Source: Glaciecola sp. 33A (GTDB taxonomy: Bacteria; Pseudomonadota; Gammaproteobacteria; Enterobacterales; Alteromonadaceae). From it: a stretch of DNA of 40,000 nucleotides. Both the position numbers and the translations under genes were made by a program. Below are positions 2,269-31,567 of this stretch, one piece after another. Numbering within the stretch: position 1 is the first letter of the stretch; the number at the start of each line of letters is the position of its first letter. The stretch lies in assembly GCF_002836745.1 (NCBI RefSeq), contig NZ_PJAR01000024.1, forward strand, positions 163,174 to 203,173, in the 5' to 3' direction. Under the pieces are notes generated by a model, which saw nothing but the letters and a program-made list of their open reading frames with translations, had not been told where the DNA came from and did no database searches.

Positions 2269-3270
2269 TTATTTTACTAATAGGAGATATTCACCCGGTG
2301 TAATGCCCATCCACTCTTTAAAAGCTCTAATAAATGCACTTTGCTCTGAATATCCAAGTAAAAAGGCTATCTCTAAAGATGTAAATTGGCCATCAACTAG
2401 ATACCGTTTAGCTAACCGACAGCGTGAGTCGGCGAGTATAGAACGATAATTGTGATCGTTATTACTTAGTTTTCGATAAAATGATCGTAGTGAAAAACCC
2501 ATTTTTACACAAACAGTGCTCGCACGAGTGTCACCGTCTTTCATCGCGACCAATATTTGTTCTCGTAATTTTAAGAGAAAAGGTGCAAACGTTTCATTTT
2601 GATATTTTGTTTCTGTTAATAAAAATCTAGCTTGTTGATCAAAGATTTTAAGCAGCGATGGGTCACTTGTTGAAATATTCAATAACATTAAATATGTTGG
2701 TATATTTACCCGTAATGTGGGTGAGTTAAACTCAACTGGACAGCCTAAAATCGCTTGATAAATATTAATATCGTTAGGAATTTTAATGGGTAAAGCTACA
2801 GATACAGGTGCAATTTTCCGATTAATTAACGATTGGTAAAGTGTGATAAATATAATCAAACCAAATTCATATAACAGTCGATTATCTACACCTCGTAACA
2901 TCCATTGATGACTATAAGTCTTTCCTTGAATTTCTATTTTAGCTGCCAAATCAGTTAAGACTAATGTTTGGTATCGACCATATCTAATTAGCGCTTGTTT
3001 AAGCGTACTGCATGATGTTAGTAAATTTCCAACTAAGCCAAAATCTTCCGGTTTTGCCATCGCCCCAATGCGCAGCCCTAATGCTGTTAGCGGAGTTAAC
3101 TGATAAATTTGATCCAGTAATTGTGAAAATGTCTGCGTGTCGACGCGTTGTCCTTTAGATAGTTCATGAAGTGTTTTTCTTAAGCTTTTTGCTTCTAATG
3201 TTTGCTCATCTATGTATCGCGTTAAAATATTAAGGAAGCTAATGGGAACATAGGCTTTGTATTGAGTCAT
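2269..3270 (-). CDS. AraC family transcriptional regulator (N-terminal ligand-binding domain plus C-terminal double HTH)
   Basis: 333-aa ORF. The C-terminus RLAKRYLVDGQFTSLEIAFLLGYSEQSAFIRAFKEWMGITPGEY is the canonical AraC/XylS HTH signature. It is divergent from the 3410 gene. Confidence 0.85.
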   Translation of the reverse strand: MTQYKAYVPISFLNILTRYIDEQTLEAKSLRKTLHELSKGQRVDTQTFSQLLDQIYQLTPLTALGLRIGAMAKPEDFGLVGNLLTSCSTLKQALIRYGRYQTLVLTDLAAKIEIQGKTYSHQWMLRGVDNRLLYEFGLIIFITLYQSLINRKIAPVSVALPIKIPNDINIYQAILGCPVEFNSPTLRVNIPTYLMLLNISTSDPSLLKIFDQQARFLLTETKYQNETFAPFLLKLREQILVAMKDGDTRASTVCVKMGFSLRSFYRKLSNNDHNYRSILADSRCRLAKRYLVDGQFTSLEIAFLLGYSEQSAFIRAFKEWMGITPGEYLLLVK

Positions 3271-3323
3271 CTATTTCTCAATAAGTGCGATTATTTTGAT
3301 GAGATTAACATGTTGGCACGTTA

Positions 3324-3349
3324 TGTCAATGGACGGTGAAATTGTCAAT
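3324..3349. promoter_or_regulatory. direct repeat tgtcaat (3324-3330 and 3343-3349) in the AraC / redox-fusion divergent promoter
   Basis: The 7-mer occurs twice, 19 bp apart, within the 139-bp divergent intergenic region. AraC-family proteins commonly bind direct-repeat half-sites. The assignment is speculative. Confidence 0.25.
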
Positions 3350-3409
3350 ATTTACCTAACAATAGCGCTTAAAATAGTATTCTTTTATCAATAGCATCTG
3401 GAAATTATT

Positions 3410-6400
3410 ATGGCATATGTTGTAACTCAAGCATGTATAGGAAATAAGCATACCGATTGCGTAGACGTTTGTCCTGTTGATGCATTTAGGGAAGGTCCTG
3501 AAATGCTCTACATTGACCCTAATGTATGTATTGATTGCAATGCTTGTATCACAGCATGTCCAGAACGTGCCATTTACTCAGAAAGTTCTGTTCCTAGTTT
3601 AATGCAAGACTTTATTGCATTGAATGCCGAAAAATCTCAAATATATCCTGTGATAACACAAAGTATTGGCCATGATGTTGCGGTATCTCCTATGGCTAGT
3701 TTTTCAGGACACTTCGCAGTAATAGGCTCTGGCCCTGCAGGTTTTTATACCGCTGAAGAAATATTAAAACAAATGCCATTAGCTAAGGTTGATATGTTTG
3801 AGCGCCTACCCACACCTTTTGGTCTTGTTCGTTATGGCGTAGCTCCAGATCATCCTCGCATAAAATCAGTATCATCTAGCTTTGATCGTATTGCAGAAAA
3901 TGAACGCTTTCGTTTTTTTGGCAATGTTGAATTAGGCCGTGATATTCAACGAACTGACTTACTTGAGCAATATGATGGGGTTGTTTATGCAACGGGAGGA
4001 TCTAAAAGTCGAGCTTTATCGATTCCGGGGGCTGAGTTACCTAATATTTTTGGCTCTTCAACCTTCGTTGGTTGGTATAACGGTCACCCTGATCAAAGTC
4101 AACTTTCTGTAGACTTGTCATTACAAACCGCTGTTGTTATTGGTATGGGGAATGTGGCATTAGATATTGCTCGAATGTTGGTATTATCACCTGAGCAACT
4201 TGAAAAAACAGATGTCGCTGATGAAGCGTTAAGTGCCTTTAAACAAAGCTCAGTACAAGAGGTAATTTTAATTGCTCGTCGAGGTATTGCTCAAGCGGCC
4301 TTCACGCCAAAAGAATTAGAACAATTAATGGGACTTGATGATGTCGACTTAATTATTGATCCAAATGATTTAGCGTTAGATCTACAAACAATTGAGCAAA
4401 CAGAATTACCTGAGTTTAGTGAAGTAAAACAAAATATTAACTTGCTTAAAGAAATTTCACAACGCCAACAGGCTGATAATATTCAAGAGAATAAAAAACG
4501 TATCCGCTTTATGTTTTGCCATAGTCCAGACTATATTGATAATGATGTAAATGGGCACAAAACCTTACATCTTACGCGTAATGAAATCATTCGAGATGAT
4601 GCTGGTCGTATTTCTATTAAAACAACTCATGAAAAATCACTTATAAATGCAAACCTCATCGTACATGCTATTGGCTATCAAGGTGATGCGATTGAAAACG
4701 TAGCTTTTGATGAACAACGTGGCGTTATTCTTAATCAGCAAGGTCGAGTAGATATTGTCAATCATAGTTCAAAAGATAATTCCGAAGGGAGTGCTTTAAA
4801 CCAAGAGTATACAGCAGGGTGGATAAAACGTGGCGCTAGTGGTGTAATTGGCAGTAATAAGCATTGCGCTCATGATACTGTTAATCAATTGATCACCGAT
4901 TTAGTTAATGCGAATACAGTAACTACCAAATTAATTAGTCAAGATATGACTGACTTACTTGATAAGCGAAACGTTGAATATATTAGTTTTAGCGATTGGC
5001 AGTTACTTGATCAACATGAACAAGTACAAGGGGACTTAGTCGGTCGTCCTCGTCGTAAAGTCACTAACATCAACACAATGTTACACATTATCCGAGACGC
5101 TCGTGTAGCGAATTTAGCAAAAGAACAAGAAAGAACAAATCTGCCAGTTAAAACGCATCTACGAAACTGTACCTTGTGTGAAGCAATGTGTGGTGTGCAA
5201 ATAAAATATCAAGGTGATGAAATTTTATCAATTGCTGGTGATAAAGATGATCCTCACAGCGGAGGACATATTTGTCCTAAAGGATATTCATTACAAGACT
5301 TACATAATGATCCAGATCGTTTGAAAACACCAATGCAAAAGGTGGATGGTCAATGGCTACCCATCAGTTGGGATGATGCACTAGATCGTGTCAGTAATGA
5401 AATTGTTAATATCCAAAGCAAATATGGTAATGACGCAATATCAGGATACATTGGGAATCCTGCTTCCCATAGTTTTGGTATATTAATGGCGGTCGGTAAA
5501 TTTCGTAAAGCATTAGGTTCTAAAAACATGCATTCGGGTGGTTCTTTAGATCAAATGCCACACCAACTGATGTCTTATTTAATGTTTGGACATGGGCAAC
5601 TGTTCACTATTCCTGATATAGATCGCACTGACTATATGTTAATGCTTGGCGCAAATCCTGCAGCTTCAAATGGTAGTTTAATGTCCGCAGGAGATGTTCT
5701 TAAGCGTTTAGAAAGCATTAAAGAGCGTGGTGGAAAATTCATCTTAGTCGACCCACGCAGAACTGAGTCAGCACGTTATGCATCAGAGCACCTTTTTATC
5801 AAACCGGGCACCGACCCGTTATTTATTTATGGTCTTATTCAATATATTATTCAGCAAGCATTGTATGAACCAGCGCACTTAACACAAATGTTAGACGGCT
5901 TCGATCAACTACTTGGTATGTTTGATCAATTTTCTCTTGCAGAAATAAGCGATGTTTGTGGTATATCAGAAGATAACATTAAACGTATAGCTACCGATTT
6001 TGCAGCCGCCGAAGGTGCCATTTGTTATGGAAGAATGGGATTATCAACACAAAATTTTTCAGCCTTAAATCATTGGCTGGTTAATATTTTAAACATTATT
6101 ACGGGTAATTTAGATCGAAAAGGCGGCATGATGTTTACTAAACCTGCTGTTGATACAGGCATTCAAGCCTCTACCGCAGGTAGTTTTGCTAAATTTCATA
6201 GTCGTGTTAGAGGCTTACCTGAATTTAGTCGAGAATTGCCAACAGCTATACTCGCGGAAGAAATGCTAACGCCAGGTGAAGGACAAGTAAAAGGGTTTAT
6301 TTGTATAGCCGGAAACCCCGTTTTATCAGTGCCTAACGGTCGTCAACTTGACGAAGCACTTAACAACTTAGACTTTATGGTCTCGGTAGATTTTTTTCTA

Positions 6401-7291
6401 AATGAAACATCACGCCATGCTGATATTATTTTACCGCCAACAGGACCTTTAGAGCATGAGCATTTTGATATAGTCTTTAACTTATTAGCGGTACGCAATG
6501 TCGCAAAATATTCGGAAGCATTATTTGAACATAGAGATGATACCCGCTCTGACTTTGATATTATGTTCGGCTTAACACAACGTATTAATCAGTTAAAACA
6601 CGGCATTATTAACATCAAAAAACAACCTGAAATGACTATGGAACAAATTCTGGATTACAGTTTGAGAAGTGGTCCATATGGAAAGTCTTTTACTTCTTAT
6701 GAATCAGGAAAAGAAATTTCACATGATTATGGTTTGAGTTTAGACGTATTAAAACAGTACCCGCACGGATTAGACCTAGGGCCTTTAAAACCATGTTTAC
6801 CAAATCACTTATTTACTAAAGATAAACTTATTCATTTATTACCTGACCCTATACTAGATGACCTTCAGAGAATGAAAGCACAATTTTCAAGTAAAACAGC
6901 CACATCATTGATGATGATAAGCCGTAGAGATTTACGTACAAATAATTCATGGATGCACAACAGCCAACGTTTAATTAAAGGCAAAGATCGCTGTGCTTTG
7001 TTAATTCACCCTGAAGATGCAAAAGAAAAAGGTGTTGTCGACAGAGGTCAAGCGTACTTGAAATCACGAGTTGGGGAATTGAAAGTTGATGTACTTATTA
7101 CAGAAGACGTTATGCGAGGTGTTGTTTGTTTACCGCATGGTTGGGGTCATGATAGAGAAGGTATCGCTCTGCGTGTAGCGCAAACTAATCCAGGCGTCAG
7201 TATGAATGACTTAACAGATGATCAACGGGTTGATAGCATGTCAGGAAATGCAATATTCAATGGCATACCTGTCGAAATAGCACCTTGTTAA
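3410..7291 (+). CDS. tri-domain fusion: 7Fe-type ferredoxin (aa 1-85), FprA/adrenodoxin-reductase-like NAD(P)H flavoprotein (aa ~101-565) and molybdopterin (Mo-bisPGD) oxidoreductase (aa ~582-1293)
   Basis: Uninterrupted 1293-aa ORF. The ferredoxin Cys pattern is C9, C17, C21-P and C40xxC43xxC46xxxC50-P. The flavoprotein part has VIGSGPAG (FAD), VAPDHPRIK and VIGMGNVALD (NADPH) motifs. C587xxC590xxxC594...C622 is the N-terminal 4Fe-4S motif of molybdopterin oxidoreductases, and a long MopB-like body follows. Confidence 0.85.
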   Translation: MAYVVTQACIGNKHTDCVDVCPVDAFREGPEMLYIDPNVCIDCNACITACPERAIYSESSVPSLMQDFIALNAEKSQIYPVITQSIGHDVAVSPMASFSGHFAVIGSGPAGFYTAEEILKQMPLAKVDMFERLPTPFGLVRYGVAPDHPRIKSVSSSFDRIAENERFRFFGNVELGRDIQRTDLLEQYDGVVYATGGSKSRALSIPGAELPNIFGSSTFVGWYNGHPDQSQLSVDLSLQTAVVIGMGNVALDIARMLVLSPEQLEKTDVADEALSAFKQSSVQEVILIARRGIAQAAFTPKELEQLMGLDDVDLIIDPNDLALDLQTIEQTELPEFSEVKQNINLLKEISQRQQADNIQENKKRIRFMFCHSPDYIDNDVNGHKTLHLTRNEIIRDDAGRISIKTTHEKSLINANLIVHAIGYQGDAIENVAFDEQRGVILNQQGRVDIVNHSSKDNSEGSALNQEYTAGWIKRGASGVIGSNKHCAHDTVNQLITDLVNANTVTTKLISQDMTDLLDKRNVEYISFSDWQLLDQHEQVQGDLVGRPRRKVTNINTMLHIIRDARVANLAKEQERTNLPVKTHLRNCTLCEAMCGVQIKYQGDEILSIAGDKDDPHSGGHICPKGYSLQDLHNDPDRLKTPMQKVDGQWLPISWDDALDRVSNEIVNIQSKYGNDAISGYIGNPASHSFGILMAVGKFRKALGSKNMHSGGSLDQMPHQLMSYLMFGHGQLFTIPDIDRTDYMLMLGANPAASNGSLMSAGDVLKRLESIKERGGKFILVDPRRTESARYASEHLFIKPGTDPLFIYGLIQYIIQQALYEPAHLTQMLDGFDQLLGMFDQFSLAEISDVCGISEDNIKRIATDFAAAEGAICYGRMGLSTQNFSALNHWLVNILNIITGNLDRKGGMMFTKPAVDTGIQASTAGSFAKFHSRVRGLPEFSRELPTAILAEEMLTPGEGQVKGFICIAGNPVLSVPNGRQLDEALNNLDFMVSVDFFLNETSRHADIILPPTGPLEHEHFDIVFNLLAVRNVAKYSEALFEHRDDTRSDFDIMFGLTQRINQLKHGIINIKKQPEMTMEQILDYSLRSGPYGKSFTSYESGKEISHDYGLSLDVLKQYPHGLDLGPLKPCLPNHLFTKDKLIHLLPDPILDDLQRMKAQFSSKTATSLMMISRRDLRTNNSWMHNSQRLIKGKDRCALLIHPEDAKEKGVVDRGQAYLKSRVGELKVDVLITEDVMRGVVCLPHGWGHDREGIALRVAQTNPGVSMNDLTDDQRVDSMSGNAIFNGIPVEIAPC

Positions 7292-7411: not shown

Positions 7412-9070
7412 TTATATACTAGCTATCTCGGACTCCCAAATAATGTCACCGAGTAACTCACCATTTATTAATTGCATATACTTTTGTTCAATAGCGTTTC
7501 GTTTAATTTTTAACGTGGGTGTTAATAGCCCGTTGTCTATATCCCATACGCCAGAACAAACGAGAATGTAATCTAATTTTTGGTGACTTTCCAATTTATT
7601 ATTTACATCTATTAATATGTTTTTTAATTTTTCAACGGCCTCAGTATTTGCTTTTGAAATTGAATTATTTAGCACCACGATTGCTATAGGTTGCTTTAAG
7701 CCTGCTCCCATCACACAAACCTGATCTATATCGGTATTGGCGCTTAGCAAACTTTCAATCGGCACGGGAGCGACATATTTTCCTTTGCTGGTTTTAAATT
7801 TGTCTTTTATCCGGCCGACAATTTTAAATGCACCAGAGGCAGTATTTTCACCACAATCACCAGTGTTAAACCAACCATCGGTAAACGATTCTGAGGTGGT
7901 TTCAGTATCTCGATAATATTCACTGAATACGGCATCACCTTTAATTAAAATTTCACCTTCTTTAGAAAGTTCCATCGTTACGCAATCAATTGGCTTACCA
8001 ATTGTTCCCAAGTCACTTTTGACATAGGGTAGGTTAATACAAGATATGCTGGACGTTTCTGACATGCCCCATGCTTCACTAATATTAATTCCTAATTTTT
8101 CATACCATTGTAATAAAGAAAGAGGTATTGGAGCTGTACCTGAAACAAAGTACCTTGCGCATTCCAATCCTAATTTTGTTCTTATTTTTTTAGCTATAAT
8201 TTTGTTAATAATTGGGATTGAGATTAAAAAGTTTAACTTTTTTTCAGGGATATTTTTCAATATTTGGCTTTGGAATTTTGTCCAGAGTCTTGGTACTGAA
8301 CCAAATACGGTCGGCTTACCGTAATTTAGGTCTTCAATAAACGTTTCAAGAGATTCGACGAAATATATTTCATATCCTATGAAAAGTGATGACGCTTCTA
8401 AACTTCGCTCAACAGCGTGCGCTAATGGAAGATAAGACATTTGGCGATCATTCGACGTCATGTTAAATTTTAATGCGGTGCTTTGTGCAGCCGATACCCA
8501 GTTTTTATAGGTTAATACAACACCCTTCGGCTTGCCTGTTGAACCAGACGTATAAAGTATGGTGGCGGTATCATCTATGGACGCTTGATGAACGTTTTCA
8601 ATAGGCGGATATTTGCTTAACCAAGACGTAAATGATTCTGTAGTTGAAGCGGTAGGGTAAGGAAACGCTATACGCAGTACATCTGGATTAATTGCTGATT
8701 CGGCTGCGCTTGTGTCGTCTAATTTACCAACGAATATAGCTTTCAAGTCTGCGTGTTTAATTATAAAGCTTATCGTGTTGTGGTGCGCAGTTGAAAAAAT
8801 TGCTACAGGTATATAGCCAGCCATCATTATTGCTAAATCGCTTATAATCCAATGAGCACAGTTTTTTGATAAAATACCTATTCTTGAACCTTTTTCATAT
8901 CCCTGCGATTGTAAGCCCTTTGCAATACAACGTGCTTGATGTTCTACCTCTGTCCAAGTGAACTTTTGCCACTGCCTTGCAATGGGTTGATGCAAGTAAA
9001 CCTTGTTTGGATTATTTTTACTTTGCTTTAGTAAGTTTTGAACGGGAGTTGTATATGTCATCGGTAGCAC
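7412..9070 (-). CDS. AMP-dependent acyl-CoA synthetase/ligase (long-chain fatty-acid-CoA ligase-like)
   Basis: 552-aa ORF with the AMP-binding motif LYTSGSTGKPKGV, a later GWFNTGD motif and a C-terminal TPTLKIKR motif. The listed start is GTG at 9070, with an alternative ATG at 9061. Confidence 0.85.
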   Translation of the reverse strand: MLPMTYTTPVQNLLKQSKNNPNKVYLHQPIARQWQKFTWTEVEHQARCIAKGLQSQGYEKGSRIGILSKNCAHWIISDLAIMMAGYIPVAIFSTAHHNTISFIIKHADLKAIFVGKLDDTSAAESAINPDVLRIAFPYPTASTTESFTSWLSKYPPIENVHQASIDDTATILYTSGSTGKPKGVVLTYKNWVSAAQSTALKFNMTSNDRQMSYLPLAHAVERSLEASSLFIGYEIYFVESLETFIEDLNYGKPTVFGSVPRLWTKFQSQILKNIPEKKLNFLISIPIINKIIAKKIRTKLGLECARYFVSGTAPIPLSLLQWYEKLGINISEAWGMSETSSISCINLPYVKSDLGTIGKPIDCVTMELSKEGEILIKGDAVFSEYYRDTETTSESFTDGWFNTGDCGENTASGAFKIVGRIKDKFKTSKGKYVAPVPIESLLSANTDIDQVCVMGAGLKQPIAIVVLNNSISKANTEAVEKLKNILIDVNNKLESHQKLDYILVCSGVWDIDNGLLTPTLKIKRNAIEQKYMQLINGELLGDIIWESEIASI

Positions 9071-9170
9071 AAGATCCTTGTAGAACGTTAACCTGCCATC
9101 ACGTTTGATTAAAATTTTAAATTAATACGCATAGTTAGTACCTTAGGTAGGAGCAGTAAATTAGTATATC

Positions 9171-9191
9171 AACCTGCCATTTATGCAGGTT
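9171..9191. promoter_or_regulatory. 21-bp palindrome aacctgc-catttat-gcaggtt upstream of the acyl-CoA ligase, with an extra half-site aacctgcca at 9090-9098
   Basis: Read directly from the sequence. The palindrome is about 100-130 bp upstream of the ligase start and the half-site is about 20-37 bp upstream. It is a candidate operator. Confidence 0.3.
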
Positions 9192-9294
9192 ATAGTATAA
9201 TCATGAGTAAGTCAGAATAGCTATTAATTCAAGGTATTTTAGAGTTGTTTTACTGATAGGTTTATTTTATACCTCGTTTGTTTGATGCATAAAA

Positions 9295-9955
9295 CTAAGG
9301 TTTGCTCTCGTCAAAAGGGTTTATGAAGTTATATTCTTCATGGCTTTTGTAATGGCCTTTTCTTTCCCCTTTTTTATTTTTGACACTCTTTGTATGGACT
9401 GTAAATGACGTTCTCAACCAGCACAAAAATATGGCGGCTAACAGCAAATATGCTATCGTGTCTCCAGTGGCGACTTCATAAGTATGCCACTGGTAAACAC
9501 AAAGTTATTCCATGAACATAAAACGCCGGCGAATGCCGCTACAGCTTTAAAAGTTCAGCTTGCGACTGCTCAAATGCGGATCAAACTACCATGGTGTAAT
9601 ACCCCAAACCATAAACGTAATACTCAACACAACAGCAGACAGTCCTATCAACATAAACCCAATTAGCGAGCGTTTTCTTAGCAAATTTTCCCTATGACTT
9701 TTTAAGGTGATTAGCATGCTTGCTATCCCCATTGAACCAGCGAATAACAAAAATAACGCGCCAACACCCGCCGGTGGAGCAAAGCCTGCCAGTATGCTCC
9801 TTGCGCTAATTTCTAAAGTGGCACTTAGGCCAGTGCCAACGAGGCCTACACCGATCAATAAAACAAGTGCAGTAAGAGCCGCTGTGAGCCGCCGAGTAAC
9901 AGGGCCTCCTCAAGACAAGAGACGTCCAGATTATCTAAATTTTGTTCAGGGTCAT
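9295..9955 (-). pseudogene. disrupted multi-pass membrane protein gene (fragments in at least two frames)
   Basis: The 90-aa ORF 9586..9858 is hydrophobic with TM-like segments, has only a TTG start, and ends in ...GITPW*. A downstream fragment in another frame reads YLLLAAIFLCWLRTSFTVHTKSVKNKKGERKG..., a TM segment plus basic tail. An upstream ATG at 9955 runs into a stop after 6 codons. Confidence 0.3.
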
Positions 9956-10177
9956 CGAAAAAATCGCTAAGCACTTGCGTTGCGCATTAAGGCATAGAGC
10001 GAGTAGGATCATGGCCTGCGTAAGGAACAATGATTAACCTGCTATTACTAAACCTCGGCGCAATACGTTCTGCAAGTGGAGGTGGTGTGACTGGACTCTC
10101 AATTCAAAATCGTCTTATTGAGGACAGGCTAACTTAGATAAAAAGTGATGCCGATAAATAACCCCTAGCAGCTGAGT

Positions 10178-10459
10178 TTACTTCTGATCATTTAATCTTT
10201 GCTTAGCCCAAATTCTAAATTGGATTCCTTTTTTAGAATTGACTCGATAACCGATTGAAATGGTGAGAACTAAATTGTTGCGTTCAATCTCGCGAATTAT
10301 GCTTCTCGGTGCTACTTTACGTACCATCCGGAATTTCCCGATAGTTGACGCTTTAGCTATTCTCCGCTTGAATACACACTTTTTAATCTGGGTAGTTATG
10401 GGCCTTATATTTTTATCAAGCATGAGTTGAACATCAACTAGACCAACCTTAAAGGACAT
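10178..10459 (-). pseudogene. N-terminal fragment of a RhuM-family protein (truncated to about 93 of about 330 aa)
   Basis: The segment ...LTISIGYRVNSKKGIQFRIWAKQRLNDQK* matches the conserved RhuM core (ISVGYRV-S--GTQFRIWA-QVL). The ORF stops right after this core and the rest of the family body is absent. Confidence 0.7.
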
Positions 10460-11114
10460 GACATGTTGATTTAACTAAAAGAATTTTTTCAAAATGAAAT
10501 CGCATTTAACACACCAAAAAGTACTAATGCCCAACAACAATAAAGTCTAGAGCAGCCATGTGCTTTACTGTTGATGGCAGTGTCTAATGCTGACTTTGAG
10601 GATTCTAGCCTTGAGAAAGGAAAGATAAAGCAGGTGCTACAGTCATTATTTAATTTGTCAGATGAAAAGTTAGTCGAGTTATTTGAGCGTAGTAGCCAAG
10701 GCAGCAAAGACACCACATCGATACATCCATTTACATCAATAATTAACGATAATTATGAGTAAGATCAAAAGTAAACTTATTGAAATTGATGCAGAAGGTG
10801 GCATTTGTTGACGATAATTTAGATAAATATGAATTAGCAGTGATCCGAAAAGTCGCTGCTTCAGAATCAAGTTGTGGTCGTAGTTATCTGAAAGTAAAAC
10901 ATATTGCAGCAGAGGATAGGTAACGCCGACTTAATTAACGTGTACGTTTACCGACGTTTCTTTTAATGTTGCCGGTTAAAACTACATTACTACGTGACTA
11001 GTCGTTAACCAACCTCTCTACTTATGAATATTTTTAGTGCGATGATGCTTCATTTCTAAAAATAAGTCGCTAAAACGACAATGTCATACTTAATAGTAGT
11101 TCAGGGAGATATAC

Positions 11115-19744: not shown

Positions 19745-20971
19745 TCAAGAGGTTAATATTTCTTTCATCGAGACACCTAAATTAGCAAGTTTAGCTTCAT
19801 CAATAGTGATATTTTCGATAATTAATTTTTTCCCTATCATGAATTCTGCTGGGCTATTCACTGCATCAACCGCAATAACTTTCTTACCAAGTAAATAGAA
19901 TACTGCAAAACGTCGACCATGCTTTATATCACCACGTACGACTAATGAATCGTAGCCCTGCGATAAACCGGCTATTTGTAATTTCATGTCATATTGATCA
20001 GACCAAAACCAAGGTAAAGTATTATAGGCGACAGATTTATCGCAAATGTAAGCAGCTGCAGTTTTAGCTTGGTCGGTAGCATTTTGTACTGACTCTAATC
20101 TTAAATATTTCTTATAAATCGGATTATAATGCCAAGCACAATCGCCACTTGCGACAATATCAGGGTCGCTTGTACATGCAAATTCATTGACTTCAATACC
20201 ATTACCTACTGCTAAACCTGCTTTTTCTGCAATTTCTTGATTCGGCAATACGCCTACACCGACTATTATTAATTCAGCCGGGTAGCTATTACCGTTGGTG
20301 CAAACAACAGAATTTAGATTATCTTTAGCCTCAATTGATGAAACAATAACTTCAGTAACAACGTTAACCCCTTCTTCCGTATGAACTCGAGTATAAAATT
20401 CAGATAATTGTGGTGCCGTTACACGTTCTAACACTCTCGGCATCATTTCTAAAACGGTAACATCCATCCCCAATTTTCGTAATACCGCTGCGGTTTCTAA
20501 ACCGATATAACCACCACCAATAATGACAGCTTTTTTATCTGGCTTTGCAAGAGTCTTAATATAGTCAACATCTTTCGCTGTTTTTAAATATGAAATTCCT
20601 GCAAGGTCACTACCTGGTATCGTTAATTTTCGAACACGAGAACCTAGAGTGAGAGCTAATTTATCGTAATTAAGTATATCGCCATTGTTTAGTGTTACGG
20701 TTTTATCAGCACGATTAATTGCAGCCAAACCAACGCCTAAATTAAATTCAATATTTTGCTTCTCATAAAAAGAAGCGGGTCGTAATAGAATATTACTTAA
20801 CTCTTTTGTACCCGCTAAGTACGCTTTTGAAAGAGGAGGGCGATGATAAGGTAAGGCTCCTTCATCACCGACAACAATAATACGGCCTTCCCAACATTCT
20901 TGACGTAAACTGACACTTAATTGTGCTCCACTATGGCCAGCACCAATGATAATGCAGGTTTTGTCTAACAT
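19745..20971 (-). CDS. FAD-dependent ferredoxin--NAD(P)+ reductase (putidaredoxin-reductase-like) for the Rieske oxygenase system
   Basis: 408 aa counted from the ATG at 20971, with GGAG 7 nt upstream; the track start is TTG at 20986. It has IIIGAGHSGAQ (FAD) and VIIGGGYIGLE (NADH) dinucleotide folds and the C-terminal domain of this family. Confidence 0.85.
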   Translation of the reverse strand: MLDKTCIIIGAGHSGAQLSVSLRQECWEGRIIVVGDEGALPYHRPPLSKAYLAGTKELSNILLRPASFYEKQNIEFNLGVGLAAINRADKTVTLNNGDILNYDKLALTLGSRVRKLTIPGSDLAGISYLKTAKDVDYIKTLAKPDKKAVIIGGGYIGLETAAVLRKLGMDVTVLEMMPRVLERVTAPQLSEFYTRVHTEEGVNVVTEVIVSSIEAKDNLNSVVCTNGNSYPAELIIVGVGVLPNQEIAEKAGLAVGNGIEVNEFACTSDPDIVASGDCAWHYNPIYKKYLRLESVQNATDQAKTAAAYICDKSVAYNTLPWFWSDQYDMKLQIAGLSQGYDSLVVRGDIKHGRRFAVFYLLGKKVIAVDAVNSPAEFMIGKKLIIENITIDEAKLANLGVSMKEILTS

Positions 20972-21020
20972 TGTTTTACTCCACAATAACTGGGCAGTGT
21001 TACCAGTTTGTACATAATGA

Positions 21021-21953
21021 CTACGTTAGTTTTTGACGGCGGGTTTCTAGATCTAACCCCCCAACTATCGCCCATTCAGCATAATTCTCAGGCGTTGGTT
21101 CTAAATTCAGACGTGGCTTCCAATCGCGGGTTAAATAATCTTCATCTGAATAATATTCAACTTGGCCGCCACCTGGACATTGAAAATACCAGAAGAACGC
21201 AGATGAAATAGGGTGACGGCCTGGTCCTACCAGTGTATCCCATTGACAACCACTAAAATGTAAACCACCACCAACAACTTCATAAATGTCTCTCAACATA
21301 AAGGACACGTGATTAATGCCCTTTTTCCGGTTTGGGACTTTTAATAAAAATAAGTTATGGTGAGTTCCTTCTTCAACACACCGGCTAAAGAACCCGCGTC
21401 CAGGATAAGCATCGGTGATATTAAAACCTAACAAATCGATATAAAAACGTTCATGAGCTTCCAAGTCTTCAACAAAAAAAACTACGTGGGAAATATTTAA
21501 AGGTCTTGCTCTGTCATAAACTGGTGCAGGTAAATCGACTCGAAAAATTTGGTCATAGGTATTACTCGGTGTGCCCTTAACATCTGCTTTTTGGCATTGG
21601 GTAACTTGAAAACCGATAGAGAGACCATTTGGATCTATACAGCGGGGAATACCATCATCTCCCCAAGTAATATCGACAGTTGAAGAAATTTTATCAACAA
21701 AAGCATTAAGTGCCTCTTGATTTGACACTCCCCAGATAACTTCGCGAACTGTAGGCCCCTCTTCAATCGCCTTCGGCAATTGAGGATCTGACGTTTTCCG
21801 TAAAATTATTTGGGATTTCTCTAGCGTTTCCAATACCTTAATATCAGCTTCATCTTTTACTAAATTTAAACCCCAATCAGAGAAAAATTTACACGATAGT
21901 GACATATCATCAACACCGTATGTTACTTTTTCAATTCCAGTTAAACCGTTCAT
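21021..21953 (-). CDS. type I extradiol ring-cleavage dioxygenase (two-domain vicinal oxygen chelate fold)
   Basis: 311 aa counted from MNGLTGIEKVTYGV. The track ORF adds 19 codons that overlap the upstream SDR. The C-terminal domain ISHVVFFVEDLEAHERFY...GTHHNLFLL...INHVSFML is typical of catechol/dihydroxybiphenyl 2,3-dioxygenases. Confidence 0.85.
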   Translation of the reverse strand: MNGLTGIEKVTYGVDDMSLSCKFFSDWGLNLVKDEADIKVLETLEKSQIILRKTSDPQLPKAIEEGPTVREVIWGVSNQEALNAFVDKISSTVDITWGDDGIPRCIDPNGLSIGFQVTQCQKADVKGTPSNTYDQIFRVDLPAPVYDRARPLNISHVVFFVEDLEAHERFYIDLLGFNITDAYPGRGFFSRCVEEGTHHNLFLLKVPNRKKGINHVSFMLRDIYEVVGGGLHFSGCQWDTLVGPGRHPISSAFFWYFQCPGGGQVEYYSDEDYLTRDWKPRLNLEPTPENYAEWAIVGGLDLETRRQKLT

Positions 21954-21975
21954 AATGTAGTTTCCAAAAATTAAT

Positions 21976-22782
21976 TTAAATGTGTTTCGCCATGCCACCT
22001 GAGACATCAATAGTGCTGCCTGTGGTATATGATGATGCTGGTGAAGCTAGGTATAATAATGCTTTCGCTGGCTCTTCAGGATGACCAAACCTTGCTAGTG
22101 GAATATTCTTCTGTTTCGCCAATTGGTTAAGCCATGCTTCGTAAGATTCAGTATGCGGTTCATTTGAAGACTTGGCTTTATCATATCGTTTTTGCCATTG
22201 CCCTGATTCTATCGTACCTAACAAAATTGAGTTGACACGAATACCTTTTCGGGCAAATTCTTTAGCCATACTGTGTACCAAATTTAACAAACCAGCTCTT
22301 GCTGCAGAGGTGGCAACCATGTGAGGCTCAGGTTGTAATGCTAGTAAAGAATTAACACATACTATCGACGGATTATCAGAGCCTTCTAATAAAGGTAAAA
22401 ATGCTTGAGTTGGATATATGACCCCAAAAAACTTCAAATTGAGTTCAGCAACCCATGCTTCATCTGTGGTGTTTGAAAACGTTGAAACACGTCCACCGCC
22501 CGCATTATTAATTAAAGCATTAATGTTTCCAAACCTTTCTTCGACGGCCTTTGCAAAAATGTCTAATTGATCTTTTTCTAGCACATCACAACAACGAGCT
22601 AAAATGTTACTTGTAGGGAATTTATTTTCCAAATAAGCACTTATTTCTGTTAGCGTTGTTTGATTTCGAGCACAAAATGCAACATTAGCACCCTCTGCTA
22701 ATAACAATTCAACCGTCGCTAAACCAATACCCGATGTGCCACCGGTAACAACTACGGTTTTATTTTTTAGACCTAAATCCAT
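21976..22782 (-). CDS. short-chain dehydrogenase/reductase (SDR)
   Basis: 268-aa ORF with the cofactor motif VVTGGTSGIGLA and an NNAG motif. It sits 15 bp downstream of the hydrolase gene. Confidence 0.85.
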   Translation of the reverse strand: MDLGLKNKTVVVTGGTSGIGLATVELLLAEGANVAFCARNQTTLTEISAYLENKFPTSNILARCCDVLEKDQLDIFAKAVEERFGNINALINNAGGGRVSTFSNTTDEAWVAELNLKFFGVIYPTQAFLPLLEGSDNPSIVCVNSLLALQPEPHMVATSAARAGLLNLVHSMAKEFARKGIRVNSILLGTIESGQWQKRYDKAKSSNEPHTESYEAWLNQLAKQKNIPLARFGHPEEPAKALLYLASPASSYTTGSTIDVSGGMAKHI

Positions 22783-22797
22783 TCGTTAAACTCCTCT

Positions 22798-23664
22798 TTA
22801 TTGCTCTATTTTATTTCTAATAAAACAGAGTAAAAAACGTTCGAAAATATCGGCTTGCTCAATATAAACGGCATGCCCCGCATTGGGTATTTCTTGAAAT
22901 ATTCCTGAGTGGCAGGTATGTGCAACTAATTTTGCACTTTCTACAGGAACAACTATGTCGTCTGCGCCGTATAAAACTAACACGGGTCCGGTATAGTTTT
23001 GTATATCATCAATTAAATCAGACGACGCTAACATAGCTGCGGCTGCTATATAGCCGCGTTCCCTCAACCGTCTTGTATTCCACTGTACTAAATCCACTGC
23101 TCCTTGTTTAGCGTTTCCAGATAACAAACGTGATGGGCTTAAATGGGCCATTCCATCAACGCCTGTTTGTGTCATGTCAACTACACGATCATTGACTATT
23201 CCATCTCGAGTTGTTTTACTCTGCTTGCCGTAACCTAACGCGGGATTAACAAAAGTAAGGGATTGTATTTTTTCAGGCCAATTTTTAGCAAAAGCAGCAG
23301 CGATAATGGCCCCTAACGAATGACCTACTAGCTGTATTTTTTCCAGTTGTAAATGGTTGATTAATATCAATAACCGTTTGGCATATGCTTGACTAGCTGA
23401 AGTAGAGTCAACAATTATGTTTGAGTCACCATAACCAGGTGCATCCCAAGCAATTAAACGGTATCCGCCAAACTTACTTTCTAATTGTTGTAACCATGAA
23501 GCCGAGCTAGAACCAATACCATGAAGAAAAACAATCGTTTTATCGCTCTGGACACCATTTTCGCGATAAGAAACTGTTACATCCTTTTCAGTTGCTAACT
23601 GCAGTGGATATTGAGCCAACCTAGTGGTTAATTCTTGCATTCGTTCAGCGGTATTATTTTTCAT
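22798..23664 (-). CDS. alpha/beta-fold hydrolase (meta-cleavage-product hydrolase-like)
   Basis: 288-aa ORF with an oxyanion region VFLHGIGSS, the nucleophile elbow GHSLGA, and a C-terminal NAGH (His) region. Confidence 0.85.
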   Translation of the reverse strand: MKNNTAERMQELTTRLAQYPLQLATEKDVTVSYRENGVQSDKTIVFLHGIGSSSASWLQQLESKFGGYRLIAWDAPGYGDSNIIVDSTSASQAYAKRLLILINHLQLEKIQLVGHSLGAIIAAAFAKNWPEKIQSLTFVNPALGYGKQSKTTRDGIVNDRVVDMTQTGVDGMAHLSPSRLLSGNAKQGAVDLVQWNTRRLRERGYIAAAAMLASSDLIDDIQNYTGPVLVLYGADDIVVPVESAKLVAHTCHSGIFQEIPNAGHAVYIEQADIFERFLLCFIRNKIEQ

Positions 23665-23708
23665 TTATCATAAGCTCACTTATTCAACGTTAACATTCAA
23701 CAATAAAC

Positions 23709-24248
23709 CTAAACATTGCGCTTTATTTTGGATAATGGGTGATAGTCTGGATAAGTAGGTATTTGCGGTTTTCCTGAGCCTAACATAACAAACATTAGCG
23801 CTTCTTCCTGTCCAATATTATTTAAACCACGGTATATTCCAGCAGGAACAGAAACCAGATCTCGTTCATTTAAAACGGTGGTATATCGTTTATCACCATC
23901 TTCTAAAAATAGCTTTATTGTTCCTTTGTAACAAAAAAAGACTTCTTCAACATCATGATGGACATGCATTGGTCCTTCACATCCTGCAGGTAGGCACATA
24001 GTTGAAAAAGTAAAATTTTCAGCCGGCACTACATTCATGTCACTACCTACACCCGCAGCACCAGTTCCTAGATATCTCACTTGTGCACGACGGTAAACAG
24101 GATTGTAATCGGCTTGAAATTTCAAGGCATCCCAATCATATTTTCTACTTGCAAAACGAGCGACTCTCGATTCAATTTGTTCTCCAAATTCAGTATCGAT
24201 ATCGACATTTTCAAATAGTTTTTCGTTTGTTACATTATTATCAGTCAT
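23709..24248 (-). CDS. cupin-domain protein
   Basis: 179-aa ORF with cupin motif 1 GPMHVHHDVEEVFFCYKG and motif 2 VPAGIYRGLNN. Confidence 0.75.
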   Translation of the reverse strand: MTDNNVTNEKLFENVDIDTEFGEQIESRVARFASRKYDWDALKFQADYNPVYRRAQVRYLGTGAAGVGSDMNVVPAENFTFSTMCLPAGCEGPMHVHHDVEEVFFCYKGTIKLFLEDGDKRYTTVLNERDLVSVPAGIYRGLNNIGQEEALMFVMLGSGKPQIPTYPDYHPLSKIKRNV

Positions 24249-24342
24249 TCTTTTATCCTTACAATTTTAAAAATTAATTGTCTATACAAACCAATTAAAT
24301 GTTCTTGATACGAAGGCGATGTTTAAAGCATCAAGACTTTTT

Positions 24343-25092
24343 TTAGTTCATCACAAAGCCGCCATTAATTGGTAATAACTGGCCGGTGATAAAATTTGCA
24401 CTGTCAGAGAGTAAAAAATTTACTACACCAACAACATCTTCTGGTAGTTGAGCGCGAGAAATCGCACGTCCATTTTGATATAGTTGATGACGCTCTTTTG
24501 GAACATACTCTGTCGCATCAACAAGTGTTAGTCCGGGAGCAATGGCATTGACACAGACATTATCATTTCCTAATTCTCGTGCCATTGATTTTGTCATCGC
24601 AATAATGGCTCCTTTACTCGATACATAATGCATCAATTGGGGCGCTCCCCAAAGGGCAGTGTCGGATGCAACATTAACAACTTTCCCGCAACTTGATTGA
24701 CGTAAAAAAGGAGCCGCAGCGCGTGTCATTAACCAGGTTCCTCGTACATTAACATTCATCACCCGGTCCCAAACGTCAATATCAATGTCTTCCATTGAAA
24801 CACCGCCTATTCCTGTCGCTATTGCGCCATTATTAACAAGGCCATCTAAGCCACCCAACATTTTCATCGATTGTGAGACACATGCTTCAATGCTGCGAGG
24901 GTCACCTAAGTCAACTTGAACAAAATGGGCGTCATAACCTGATTTTTGCAAACTGTTCGCCACTGCAGATCCTTCAGTTTCTAAGATATCGGCAATAACG
25001 ATATGTGCACCTTTCTCAACTAAACTGATAGCAAAAGCTTGCCCTAAACCACGTGCAGAACCGGTGATAATGATACGTTTGCCTTTAAGCAT
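24343..25092 (-). CDS. short-chain dehydrogenase/reductase (SDR, dihydrodiol-dehydrogenase-like)
   Basis: It has TGSARGLGQA, NNGA and catalytic YVSSK motifs. The ATG at 25092 has GGAG 6 nt upstream; an alternative ATG lies at 25104. Confidence 0.85.
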   Translation of the reverse strand: MLKGKRIIITGSARGLGQAFAISLVEKGAHIVIADILETEGSAVANSLQKSGYDAHFVQVDLGDPRSIEACVSQSMKMLGGLDGLVNNGAIATGIGGVSMEDIDIDVWDRVMNVNVRGTWLMTRAAAPFLRQSSCGKVVNVASDTALWGAPQLMHYVSSKGAIIAMTKSMARELGNDNVCVNAIAPGLTLVDATEYVPKERHQLYQNGRAISRAQLPEDVVGVVNFLLSDSANFITGQLLPINGGFVMN

Positions 25093-25143
25093 TATTTGCT
25101 CCATTTATCTAGAAATACACTTATTTAATCGACACTTGCTAAG

Positions 25144-25455
25144 CTACAAGTAACCATGTATTTCACCCGCACTTACTCGTATTTCATATTTAATGAGATC
25201 TCGTCCTGGTTGGCGCAAGCATTGACCGCTAGGAATATGAAACAGTGCATTATGAAATGGACATTGCACTGTTTCATTAACCACCTTTCCTTGCGATAAC
25301 AAGAAAAAGTTTTGTGCATGCGGGCAAGCATCTTCTACAGCGTAATACCGGTTATCTAGATGATACAAACCAATATATTGATCATTTATCTGTAATGTGA
25401 GCTTTGTATGTTTAATCAGCTCACTTTCAGTTGCTAAAAATAACCAAGATGTCAT
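25144..25455 (-). CDS. Rieske-type [2Fe-2S] ferredoxin
   Basis: 103-aa ORF with CPH...CPFH (CxH-x17-CxxH) and no catalytic domain. It begins 8 bp after the receptor gene ends. Confidence 0.8.
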   Translation of the reverse strand: MTSWLFLATESELIKHTKLTLQINDQYIGLYHLDNRYYAVEDACPHAQNFFLLSQGKVVNETVQCPFHNALFHIPSGQCLRQPGRDLIKYEIRVSAGEIHGYL

Positions 25456-25463
25456 TATTTGCT

Positions 25464-28082: not shown

Positions 28083-28131
28083 TTTTATCTCCTCAAACCA
28101 TGTTTTAGAATGATATTATCGACCATAATAT

Positions 28132-28143
28132 AAACATTGTTTT
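28132..28143. promoter_or_regulatory. AAACATTGTTTT palindromic motif, site 1
   Basis: The core is AAACA-T-TGTTT. It lies 50-61 bp upstream of the receptor GTG, inside the 246-bp AT-rich gap of the operon. Confidence 0.35.
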
Positions 28144-28328
28144 ATCTGTGATACAGTATTGTTTAATTATAATTACAATTATCATCTTCATTTTTATAAA
28201 TATTTTTCACTTAACTCAGAACATCATTAAGATATTAACGACAACGACCAAGGTCCTAAAATTCCGTTAAAATTAGTGTCTATCGTAATATTTAATGATG
28301 CTTACAAAACATACTCTCTTTTTACAAA

Positions 28329-28643
28329 CTAATTTTGTGCTACGTAGACAATAAGTCCATCTAACGCATCAGTAACTTCTACTTGACAGGTTAAACGACT
28401 ATTAGCTTTATTACCGACCACGTTTTCAAGCATAAATTCTTCCATGTCATCTTTTTTCGGTATTTTATCAAGCCATTCTGGCGCAATAAAGCTATGGCAA
28501 GTTGCACAGGCACATGCCCCTCCGCACTCAGCAACAATACCTTCAATTCCATTATTTACTGCCCCATCCATGATTGATGAACCACTTTCTACTTCAACTT
28601 CATGCCGGTTACCGTCTTCTGTAATATAAATTATGTTGGCCAT
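28329..28643 (-). CDS. [2Fe-2S] ferredoxin, adrenodoxin/putidaredoxin type
   Basis: 104-aa ORF with the Cys motif CGGACACATCH plus the distal Cys in RLTCQV. Confidence 0.85.
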   Translation of the reverse strand: MANIIYITEDGNRHEVEVESGSSIMDGAVNNGIEGIVAECGGACACATCHSFIAPEWLDKIPKKDDMEEFMLENVVGNKANSRLTCQVEVTDALDGLIVYVAQN

Positions 28644-28687
28644 AATATTCCTACTTAATCTTTAATTAAGGTACCTTGTTTAACTGA

Positions 28688-29767
28688 TTACTCTGACTGG
28701 CTATGCAATACTACTTGTACGTTTTGTTTTTTATGATCCATCAATGCCTTCACTTGGACTCTCGCCGCTTTAGCAATTTCAAAGCGAATGCGGGATACAC
28801 CTAAATCATGTTGATAGAGAAACTCATTATCTCGAGCATCGGGATCAAGCGCTTCAAGTAGAACCCTGTCTTGCTCAAGTACATCCCAATGACGCCCTTC
28901 AGTTCTATTTTTATACATGAAGTGCCACAAATCTTTTATCCAGCCTTCTACTTTTCTAACTCGCCAAAAATAAACCTGACAAGTATTTTCATCAATAGGT
29001 GTTGCAAAACCAATGATTGCAAAATTACCGCCTGGTCCAACCTTCTTTTGATAAGGTATTGCAAGTCTAAGCCAATGTGTACCAGTATCGCCGAATTCTA
29101 CCCAGTCAAAATTCATTCCCGTTTGACCTTCTTTTTCAAAAAGCCAACCGTTCTTAGTTTTCTCTAATCGCATTTTGGCTTTTTTCTCACCCCAAGCCAT
29201 AGTATGAGAATCGCCATGCAGATAAGCACCATGCATTGGGTCCATCACATTATCAATGGCATAGCGGTAACTGGTTTTCCAGATAGCGGTACAGAGGAAT
29301 GATGAATACTCTTCTTTAACAAGTTCATCCGGTAATTCTAAGGCTACTGGCTCAGGGTTAAGTTCGTCGCCAAAATAAGCAAAAATAGCGCCCTTTATTT
29401 CTTGAATTGGGTAACTATGATTTTTCTTAGTATGCTCCATTGGGCAGTTATCAACCGCGGGTACGTTTACTACCATGCCATCTTTATCTACTTCGATGCC
29501 ATGATACCAACAAGCGAGCTTATCACCCTTGTTTATGCCTAGTGACATACGTGCACCACGGTGTGGACAACTATCTGAAATCGCGTGTACATTGCCGTCA
29601 TTATCTCGCCATACAGCAATTTTTTCACCTAAACGTGTGATACCTACTGGTGTATTTTTTACCCCCCAACTAGGCAGTATTGGGTACCATAAGTTTTTAA
29701 CACCTAAACTAATACGTTGTTCGACTAATTTATCGAACTCATCATTAGTTATAGTTTGATCCGACAT
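28688..29767 (-). CDS. Rieske non-heme iron oxygenase, alpha-only (phthalate/CarAa/KshA-like family)
   Basis: 359-aa ORF with the Rieske motif CPHRGARMSLG...CWYHG and the mononuclear iron motif DNVMDPMHGAYLH. PIDENT is shared with CarAa-type enzymes. No beta-subunit gene is adjacent. Confidence 0.9.
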   Translation of the reverse strand: MSDQTITNDEFDKLVEQRISLGVKNLWYPILPSWGVKNTPVGITRLGEKIAVWRDNDGNVHAISDSCPHRGARMSLGINKGDKLACWYHGIEVDKDGMVVNVPAVDNCPMEHTKKNHSYPIQEIKGAIFAYFGDELNPEPVALELPDELVKEEYSSFLCTAIWKTSYRYAIDNVMDPMHGAYLHGDSHTMAWGEKKAKMRLEKTKNGWLFEKEGQTGMNFDWVEFGDTGTHWLRLAIPYQKKVGPGGNFAIIGFATPIDENTCQVYFWRVRKVEGWIKDLWHFMYKNRTEGRHWDVLEQDRVLLEALDPDARDNEFLYQHDLGVSRIRFEIAKAARVQVKALMDHKKQNVQVVLHSQSE

Positions 29768-29798
29768 TGGTTGCTCCTTCTCTTACATATGTGTAAAT

Positions 29799-30098
29799 TT
29801 ACTGCTTTGCCAAATGAGACAATTCTAGTGTGAAGTTTTCTTCGGTGAATTCATTGCCATCTCTGTTATTAATACCTAATGTATTAAGCTTAGCGACTAT
29901 TTCAGCTAATTCGTGTGTTTCTGCTAAGACGGTCTCTAACGCATCACCTAAATTATTTTCATACTCAGTTGGCAGCGCCGAACGAGTTTGCCAAACAAGA
30001 TTATCAATATGATCATAGGTTTCAATAGAGCCTTTGGCTGGCCTGGTCTCAAGCCTAATTTGCTGCCAAAGTACTAAATTTTCATTATAGTCTTTCAT
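29799..30098 (-). CDS. small acidic hypothetical protein
   Basis: 99-aa ORF packed tightly between the MFS gene and the Rieske oxygenase gene (31-bp gap). It has no signal peptide or TM segment. Confidence 0.6.
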   Translation of the reverse strand: MKDYNENLVLWQQIRLETRPAKGSIETYDHIDNLVWQTRSALPTEYENNLGDALETVLAETHELAEIVAKLNTLGINNRDGNEFTEENFTLELSHLAKQ

Positions 30099-30193
30099 TT
30101 TTTCTTCTCCATCTCATAGTGGTTAATAAAAAATATATTTATAGAGCGAATATTATTTTGTAACTATTCAGTTAATAATTATTACTCTTACTG

Positions 30194-31471: not shown

Positions 31472-31567
31472 TGTTAACTCCTTTGCTGTAGATTTGATCG
31501 CATATGCATATGTAACTAACTTGTTTACAGAATAACCTTTTCTTTAACATTAATTCCACTATAAATA

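Follow-up and report, generated by a model that had tools for sequence, protein, structure and literature searches.

How does a molybdoenzyme draw its electrons when a ferredoxin and a flavoprotein reductase are built into the same polypeptide, and what might it do with them? This question is raised by a gene of Glaciecola sp. 33A, located at positions 3410..7291 of the forward strand in a 40,000-nucleotide stretch of contig NZ_PJAR01000024.1 (hereafter, the window). A first-pass annotation, made from the letters alone, had read the gene as a single uninterrupted open reading frame (ORF) of three modules, wired NAD(P)H -> FAD -> FeS -> FeS -> Mo within one chain. Our analysis supports this wiring, although the direction of flow, the choice of NADPH and the oxo-transfer chemistry are inferred, and makes it fairly likely that the product is a cytoplasmic, single-chain, AraC-controlled, NADPH-dependent oxo-transfer reductase with molybdenum (Mo) bound by bis(pyranopterin guanine dinucleotide) (Mo-bisPGD). 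The first-pass annotation had left the substrate unassigned, and we concur, as none is indicated.

A ferredoxin, a flavoprotein and a molybdoenzyme in one chain

The gene consists of 1293 codons followed by one terminal stop, and the GC content and the GC content at third codon positions (GC3) are even across all three modules. When 5.8 billion proteins were searched for homologues, at least 100 clusters (90% identity) were found with the same domain set, 1238-1341 amino acids (aa) in length and 50-96% identical over the full length. The named carriers are all Gammaproteobacteria, mostly marine, and form one clade; complete genomes with the fusion include those of Shewanella woodyi, Microbulbifer and Pseudomonas sp. 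gcc21. The three-module fusion is real and under selection. On the earlier question of how rare the architecture is and which taxa carry it, one gammaproteobacterial clade was identified, and the architecture is not unique. In a Pfam scan, the domains followed one another as anticipated, namely Fer4-type, Pyr_redox_2, Molybdop_Fe4S4, Molybdopterin and Molydop_binding, and all the motifs named in the first-pass annotation were found at their positions.

The N-terminal module (aa 1-85, 3410..3664, +) is an Azotobacter-type 7Fe ferredoxin. In a comparison with the PDB, aa 2-85 matched Azotobacter 7Fe ferredoxin I with an E-value of ~1e-24, and the Pfam models Fer4 and Fer4_16 passed their gathering scores at aa 9-58, whereas other Fer4 models stayed below the cut-off. 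The NCBIfam model FdxA_Protbact gave 103.6 bits, under its 135-bit cut-off, because just positions 1-85 of the 104 in the profile are present. The cysteine pattern Cx7Cx3CP ... CxxCxxCx3CP is formed by residues 9, 17, 21, 40, 43, 46 and 50, each of which is conserved in at least 90% of 41 fused homologues. By analogy with ferredoxin I, Cys9, Cys17 and Cys50 would bind a [3Fe-4S] cluster and Cys21, Cys40, Cys43 and Cys46 a [4Fe-4S] cluster. Because the ferredoxin itself forms the N-terminus, there is no signal or Tat peptide, as had been claimed.

A short tether (aa 86-100, 3665..3709, +), variable across the 41 fused homologues, leads to an FAD flavoprotein of the FprA/adrenodoxin-reductase type (aa 101-565, 3710..5104, +). 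Residues 101-560 matched FprA of Mycobacterium tuberculosis (1lqt, E 3e-103) and adrenodoxin reductase (1cjc, E 2e-84), and Pyr_redox_2 scored 41.2 bits at aa 102-291 against a cut-off of 26.1. The motif GSGPAG (106-111) marks the FAD site and GMGNVALD (245-252) the NADP site; APDHPRIK (145-152) lies between them, and ARRG (289-292) matches the motif for the 2'-phosphate of NADP known from the adrenodoxin reductase/FprA family. The FAD-site, NADP-site and 2'-phosphate motifs are all conserved.

AlphaFold2 (AF2) was run on two overlapping parts, aa 1-660 and aa 578-1293. In the model of the first part (m7cd7c68c57a6; mean predicted local distance difference test score, pLDDT, 81.5; predicted template modelling score, pTM, 0.77), the pLDDT of the tether fell below 50 at residues 88-91, with a mean of 61 over residues 81-90. 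In contrast to this, a confident helix was predicted at residues 554-576, followed by strands from residue 580, where the domain of the [4Fe-4S] cluster FS0 begins; the segment aa 566-581 (5105..5152, +) is the end of this long helix as it enters the Mo subunit. One possible interpretation of the two linkers is that a mobile ferredoxin swings on a fixed FprA-Mo body.

Ferredoxin-FprA fusions are known, as in M. tuberculosis FprB, which has the same ferredoxin-then-FprA order. However, proteins of the FprA/FprB type stop after the flavoprotein and feed separate acceptors such as P450s, whereas in the window protein the Mo enzyme is attached via the helix. Rhodococcus plasmids carry an FprB-like ferredoxin-FprA protein of two modules that is 38-39% identical to the window protein over aa 1-571, and this two-module form is described as the precursor.

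The molybdenum domain and its aspartate-type clade

The first-pass annotation had assigned aa 582-1293 to the molybdopterin oxidoreductases, and the profile searches place the region there. The FS0 domain (aa 582-636, 5153..5317, +) was detected by Molybdop_Fe4S4 (PF04879) at aa 587-631 with 39.8 bits against a cut-off of 22.7. The domains binding molybdopterin guanine dinucleotide (MGD) follow at aa 637-1055 (5318..6574, +), where Molybdopterin (PF00384) scored 119.7 bits against 24 (E 1.9e-34), and the dinucleotide-binding domain IV at aa 1167-1286 (6908..7267, +), where Molydop_binding (PF01568) scored 74.6 bits against 26.8 (E 7.6e-21). The FS0 cysteines C587, C590, C594 and C622, all recognised earlier, and Lys624 are invariant in the 41 fused homologues, and so are the domain IV motif RRxLRxNNSWxHN and the MGD-binding motifs. 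In the PDB comparison, aa 584-1013 matched FdhF-type subunits (E 1e-41). The AF2 model of aa 578-1293 (pLDDT 86, pTM 0.89) has the canonical four-domain fold, and with Foldseek it resembled structures of formate dehydrogenase (Fdh), Nap, acetylene hydratase, Arr and Psr with template modelling (TM) scores of 0.72-0.77 (E 1e-36 to 1e-39). Judging from the Pfam scores, the FS0 motif with its lysine and the predicted fold, the domain is a member of the Mo/W-bisPGD (DMSO reductase) superfamily, and it is predicted to be a complete catalytic subunit of the Mo-bisPGD type with the corresponding cofactors.

The Mo ligand had not been pinned down, but a candidate region had been proposed, NMHSGGSLDQMPH, which corresponds to aa 706-718. 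Within it, alignment and conservation point to Asp714 (codon 5549..5551, +, checked), in the motif SLDQMPH. This residue aligns with selenocysteine (SeCys) 140 of FdhF, with Cys173 of PsrA and with the cysteine of the FdhF subunit of HDCR, and the hidden Markov model alignments agree. Asp714 is invariant in the 41 fused homologues and also in 41 varied relatives, the most distant of them 30% identical. An exhaustive search of 1.84 billion proteins, made without a profile, supplied 150 best representatives, and Asp was found at this column in 136 of 137 of them; likewise, each FS0 cysteine column held Cys in 122-130 sequences and another residue in a single one, and the Lys624 column held Lys in 128 with three exceptions.

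No curated NCBIfam family reached its cut-off for this domain. The best-scoring was Fdh-alpha (228.9 bits against 666.25), followed by NasC (213.7 against 1100); PhsA gave 196 bits against 694, NasA_Halo 105.7 against 1000 and DMSO_red_II_alp 101.3 against 984.75. No solved structure is nearer than 18-22% identity to the domain. The enzymes FdhF (1aa6), NapA (2nap), PsrA (2vpw), ArrA (6cz7) and acetylene hydratase (2e7z) share the fold, the MGD-binding motifs and the FS0 cysteines with the Lys that follows the fourth of them, but at 18-22% identity; the window domain differs from them in having Asp instead of SeCys or Cys and in its built-in donor. With the type II enzymes (NarG, EbdA, SerA, PcrA) it shares the presumed Asp ligand. 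Type II Asp-ligated enzymes are much larger, multi-subunit proteins, most of them exported or membrane-associated. By sequence family the domain is not of this type, as the DMSO_red_II_alp score lies far below its cut-off and no NarG-type chain was found among the strong PDB matches of the window protein; the ligand type alone is shared.

From these comparisons, the domain nests in a large, un-named cytoplasmic clade of Asp-type Mo-bisPGD proteins that we define here by [S/T]-x-D at the ligand position, the FS0 motif, the lack of a signal peptide and a core of ~700-790 aa. The median length of the best 150 representatives is 719 aa, with matches beginning at residues 2-20. The nearest relatives, 40-49% identical, are stand-alone proteins of ~700-790 aa that begin right at the FS0 motif and are therefore cytoplasmic. 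Their hosts include many Pseudomonas species, Stutzerimonas, Myxococcota, Saprospiraceae, Acidobacteriota, Deinococcus and Streptomyces. The stand-alone orthologue of Pseudomonas is presumably PA3534, and Rv0197 and MSMEG_6816 may belong to the clade as well. Public labels are generic ('molybdopterin-dependent oxidoreductase' or the automatic IMG label 'anaerobic selenocysteine-containing dehydrogenase'), so the architecture, though not rare, carries no assigned function, and our literature search returned no paper on the architecture or the clade.

A second group within the clade also carries its own reductase. In at least 85 clusters, the Asp-type Mo domain is followed, at the C-terminus of the same chain, by a CysJ-like diflavin reductase (Flavodoxin_1, FAD_binding_1, NAD_binding_1). 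An example is P0142 (locus L009, 7908-11753), with 1281 aa in a group that ranges over ~1215-1310 aa; where a source name is given, these are marine Alphaproteobacteria (Litorimonas, Maricaulaceae, Litoreibacter). The Mo domain of P0142 is 42% identical to that of the window protein and has the conserved Asp and likewise a built-in NADPH donor, but the donor is another module, sits at the opposite terminus and was acquired separately. This is seen in a bootstrapped neighbour-joining tree of 44 Mo domains, in which the ferredoxin-FprA fusions are monophyletic (100/100) and stand-alone lineages always part them from the diflavin fusions (100/100), indicating separate acquisition of the two modules. 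Stand-alone forms are interspersed among the diflavin fusions themselves, a pattern suggestive of several gains or losses, or of split genes. In a further clade member, P0150 (997 aa), a GST_N domain precedes the Mo domain in the same chain.

Electron flow and alternative functions

How might the chain work? In the reaction that we propose, the FAD of the FprA-like module would take electrons from NADPH and pass them singly to the tethered N-terminal 7Fe ferredoxin, with its [3Fe-4S] and [4Fe-4S] clusters; from there they would move onward to the FS0 [4Fe-4S] cluster and then via the pterin to a Mo ion held by Asp714. Finally, a small oxidised substrate would give up an oxygen atom to the Mo (X=O + NADPH + H+ -> X + NADP+ + H2O), and the divergent AraC-type regulator would control expression, probably by sensing the substrate or a related organic compound. 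In the roles known for them, FprA and CysJ-type modules oxidise NADPH and donate single electrons; that one clade acquired these two different donors separately argues that electrons run from NADPH to Mo. S-oxides, N-oxides and oxyanions are the leading candidate classes of substrate. Asp ligation goes with oxyanion reduction in other enzymes, and organic S- and N-oxides are reasonable guesses given that the sensor is of the AraC type and most hosts are marine.

Several points weigh against this proposal. Asp714 is a candidate ligand from alignment, and the structural models are cofactor-free. We found no characterised member of the Asp-type clade in the curated families or the literature searched, and the AraC regulator, the sole conserved neighbour across eight fused loci, leaves the substrate without indication from neighbouring genes. 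In Azotobacter-type 7Fe ferredoxins the potential of the [4Fe-4S] cluster is very low, so that electrons may have to go uphill at one step, and FprA-type enzymes are reversible in principle.

The chain could indeed be read backwards. At the Mo of such a dehydrogenase or hydroxylase, formate, an aldehyde or another low-potential substrate would be oxidised, and the electrons would travel through the FeS clusters and FAD to NADP+. Fdh-alpha is the best curated family, formate dehydrogenases are the best structural matches, and some NAD+-reducing formate dehydrogenases have FeS and flavin chains built in (6tg9, 7vw6). However, 229 bits is far from the Fdh-alpha cut-off of 666, the SeCys/Cys-His pair (U140-H141 in FdhF) is replaced by Asp-Gln, and the stretch around Arg333 of FdhF is unaligned. 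FprA modules and the CysJ-type modules of the relatives oxidise NADPH in their known roles, which is the opposite direction. We therefore regard the reverse direction as improbable, though worth keeping in mind. The identity of a formate dehydrogenase in particular was rejected for the missing SeCys/Cys-His pair and the low Fdh-alpha score.

Molybdopterin oxidoreductases normally use separate electron-transfer subunits, and the first-pass annotation had set the fusion against this background. Separate partners are the usual case, but single-chain precedents exist in the CysJ-fused sister group described above and in NasN (MSMEG_4206), the nearest precedent, which PMC7816997, citing Tan et al., describes as a monomeric, NADPH-dependent nitrate reductase of the assimilatory kind in Mycobacterium smegmatis. 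Like the window protein, NasN joins an NADPH-oxidising flavoprotein and a cytoplasmic Mo-bisPGD domain with FS0 in one chain and has no partner subunits; it differs in that its reductase is a C-terminal CysJ-like diflavin module (FMN/FAD), not an N-terminal 7Fe ferredoxin with FprA. Self-sufficient Mo-bisPGD enzymes driven by NADPH are thus already known as a concept from NasN, and what differs here is the donor module and the uncharacterised Asp-type catalytic clade.

This precedent, in which an NADPH-flavin-Mo chain reduces nitrate (as reported in that account), raises the possibility that the window enzyme is an assimilatory nitrate reductase with another reductase module. NasC is the second-best curated family, and Asp is the ligand of Mo in respiratory NarG. 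The NasC score of 214 bits is nevertheless remote from the cut-off of 1100, whereas a genuine NasN-type protein (locus L098) scores 484. The Mo domain of L098 belongs to the Cys-ligated Nas family, with the motif SRLCMASAG where the window domain has SLDQMPH; it is 26% identical and a distant outgroup in the tree, and on this comparison a NasN-type identity of the Mo domain was ruled out. The regulator is of the AraC type, and no nitrite reductase, nitrate transporter or nitrogen regulator was found near any of the eight fused loci. A nitrate reductase is hence a long shot.

A further alternative is that the cofactor of the Mo-like domain has been lost, leaving just an FeS or structural module of the flavoprotein, as in NuoG or in the Fdh-like domains of the StnC/NfnC type. 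The chains 8oh5_C and 9bov_A, which match aa 93-258, join a GltD-like flavoprotein to 'formate dehydrogenase / molybdopterin oxidoreductase' parts, and presumably lack Mo. In the window protein, however, all four domains are complete, domain IV included, and the MGD-binding motifs and Asp714 are invariant. The genes of cofactor biosynthesis also stand beside the enzyme in other genomes: in Acinetobacter sp. SWAC5, the genes mobA, moaA, moaD, moaE, moaC/B, moeA and modABC come immediately after that of the orthologue, an arrangement that points to a real bis-MGD enzyme, and moaA is found in unfused operons of Rhizobiaceae. A cofactor-less module is unlikely, and we give it a very slender chance.

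These Rhizobiaceae operons lie on plasmids (L092, 10001-15070; L093, 6753-12653) and encode an unfused 101-aa ferredoxin, an FprA-like protein, a Cys-type Mo-bisPGD enzyme and MoaA. In one, the order is ferredoxin, FprA-like, Mo enzyme, moaA; in the other, an AraC gene diverges from Mo enzyme, ferredoxin, FprA-like, moaA. The partnership of ferredoxin, FprA-like protein and Mo enzyme therefore recurs. Orthology with the fusion was rejected, as their Mo subunits share 22-25% identity with it and carry Cys where the fusion has Asp714, and the operons appear to be another uncharacterised three-component system. Apart from these separate-gene versions, nothing favours the idea that the fusion is an artefact of frameshift, read-through or chimeric assembly of three genes, and this idea can be set aside for practical purposes given one ORF of even composition, a predicted helix that runs continuously from FprA into the Mo domain, and at least 100 independent full-length homologues of the same architecture from isolates and metagenomes, complete genomes among them.

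The divergent regulator and the genomic neighbourhoods

The gene of the AraC-family regulator (333 aa, Arabinose_bd and HTH_18; 2269..3270, -) is divergent from the fusion gene and separated from it by 139 bp (3271..3409), the presumed promoter/operator region. An orthologue of the regulator, 37-73% identical, is divergently adjacent in seven of the eight distinct fused loci, namely those of the window, Microbulbifer, Pseudomonas sp. gcc21, two Acinetobacter strains, Alteromonas and Aestuariirhabdus, and is absent from the Shewanella woodyi locus. The nearest curated families of the regulator are QhpR, GliR and CypR, all below cut-off, and its PDB relatives (CdpR, 5chh; VirS, 8rcx) did not reveal the ligand. 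A scan for promoters and terminators predicted sites no more often than in shuffled sequences, and repeats were not found in the intergenic region; no Moco (molybdenum cofactor) riboswitch, other Rfam family or tRNA was matched in the window sequence searched. At the one P0142-clade locus examined, an AraC orthologue was not adjacent, and the sole AraC-family gene lay ~4 kb upstream.

The inducible, non-respiratory role proposed in the first-pass annotation is supported by this conserved regulator. Because the AraC gene alone is conserved beside the fusion and no respiratory partner was found in any of the eight loci, the locus can be seen as a two-gene module of a sensor and a self-sufficient enzyme, an arrangement consistent with a role that is inducible and not respiratory. 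As to the flanking genes that had been taken as a hint, the AraC regulator stood up but the acyl-CoA ligase (7412-9070) is not conserved: its sole counterpart is a 22%-identical AMP-ligase ~4 kb off in one locus, and it was rejected as a partner. Genes of short-chain dehydrogenases/reductases (SDRs) near three loci were also rejected as shared neighbours, as 24-26% identity is generic similarity.

Other surroundings of the fused loci differ from one another. The AraC-fusion pair of Alteromonas (L006; 1759-5215, 6894-11903) lies ~1.7 kb downstream of Tn7-like tnsD/tniQ and tnsE genes, with an LmuB_C defence-type gene near, and may be transposon cargo. In Pseudomonas sp. gcc21 (L004, 317-3449), three tandem PETase/cutinase-like genes are found 4.5-7.7 kb upstream of the pair. 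In Shewanella woodyi (L001; 428-1654, 12027-13070), the fused gene is flanked by two genes of the glutathione S-transferase (GST) type, and also by two DUF1330 genes, an SDR gene, a FadL-type porin gene and two sulfatase genes. Together with the GST_N fusion of P0150, the GST-like flanks may point to a connection with thiols or glutathione.

Our contig scan was not a census of the fusion; among the matches listed, most were stand-alone relatives and two were fused loci. The gene contexts of the stand-alone relatives differ widely, and no FprA or ferredoxin gene was found within 10 kb of any of the 66 examined, except for a lone ferredoxin-like match in L030. In 18 loci (L027, L035, L043, L057 and 14 of the Pseudomonas group, e.g., L061, 12179-12520), a gene for a CGFS monothiol glutaredoxin (grxD-like) was seen ~100 bp 3' of the Mo gene on the same strand, and in Pseudomonas the stand-alone gene sits in an argF ... 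bacterioferritin neighbourhood. On two Streptomyces plasmids (L095, L096), the Asp-type enzyme is encoded amid genes for tyrosine 2,3-aminomutase, a 4-hydroxyphenylacetate-3-hydroxylase-like protein, adenylation proteins and nonribosomal peptide synthetase, which looks like a natural-product cluster. Elsewhere, the stand-alone gene comes after an ArsR-type regulator and an ArsP_1 permease (L011, 986-4898) or, in Deinococcus (L094), after xdhB-xdhC-guaD and a purine permease.

The rest of the window contains an aromatic-compound catabolic cluster at 19745-35870. It comprises a ferredoxin reductase (Pyr_redox_2 and Reductase_C), an extradiol-dioxygenase-like protein, two SDRs, an alpha/beta hydrolase, a cupin, a Rieske ferredoxin, a TonB-dependent receptor, a Fer2 ferredoxin, a VanA-like Rieske oxygenase, a major facilitator superfamily transporter, a thiamine pyrophosphate enzyme, an Asp_DH-like protein and an aldehyde dehydrogenase, and is followed by an IclR regulator gene (36107-36928). 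Between the acyl-CoA ligase gene and that of a TonB-dependent receptor, the stretch 9071-11114 holds ORFs of at most 93 aa and short, weak repeats; neither an RNA family nor a tRNA was found there.

What does the fusion mean for the family? Orphan Mo-bisPGD enzymes are hard to assay because separate redox partners are usually needed, whereas the window enzyme would bring its own NADPH supply, so that its substrate should be findable through the consumption of NADPH. That one clade is fused to two different NADPH reductase modules argues for a cytoplasmic reductase role clade-wide. An Asp ligand on an Fdh/Psr-like scaffold would, if true, be a new type of active site, and we suggest tentatively, with considerable doubt, that the fusion is the most experimentally accessible member of the large, wholly uncharacterised Asp-ligated clade and perhaps catalyses a reaction so far assigned to no molybdoenzyme. 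A self-sufficient single-chain molybdoenzyme would also be attractive for biocatalysis. The fusion is not rare, and its value lies in offering a direct assay route into a large orphan clade of molybdoenzymes: owing to its own wire from NADPH to Mo, a screen for NADPH oxidation could reveal the function of the whole clade.

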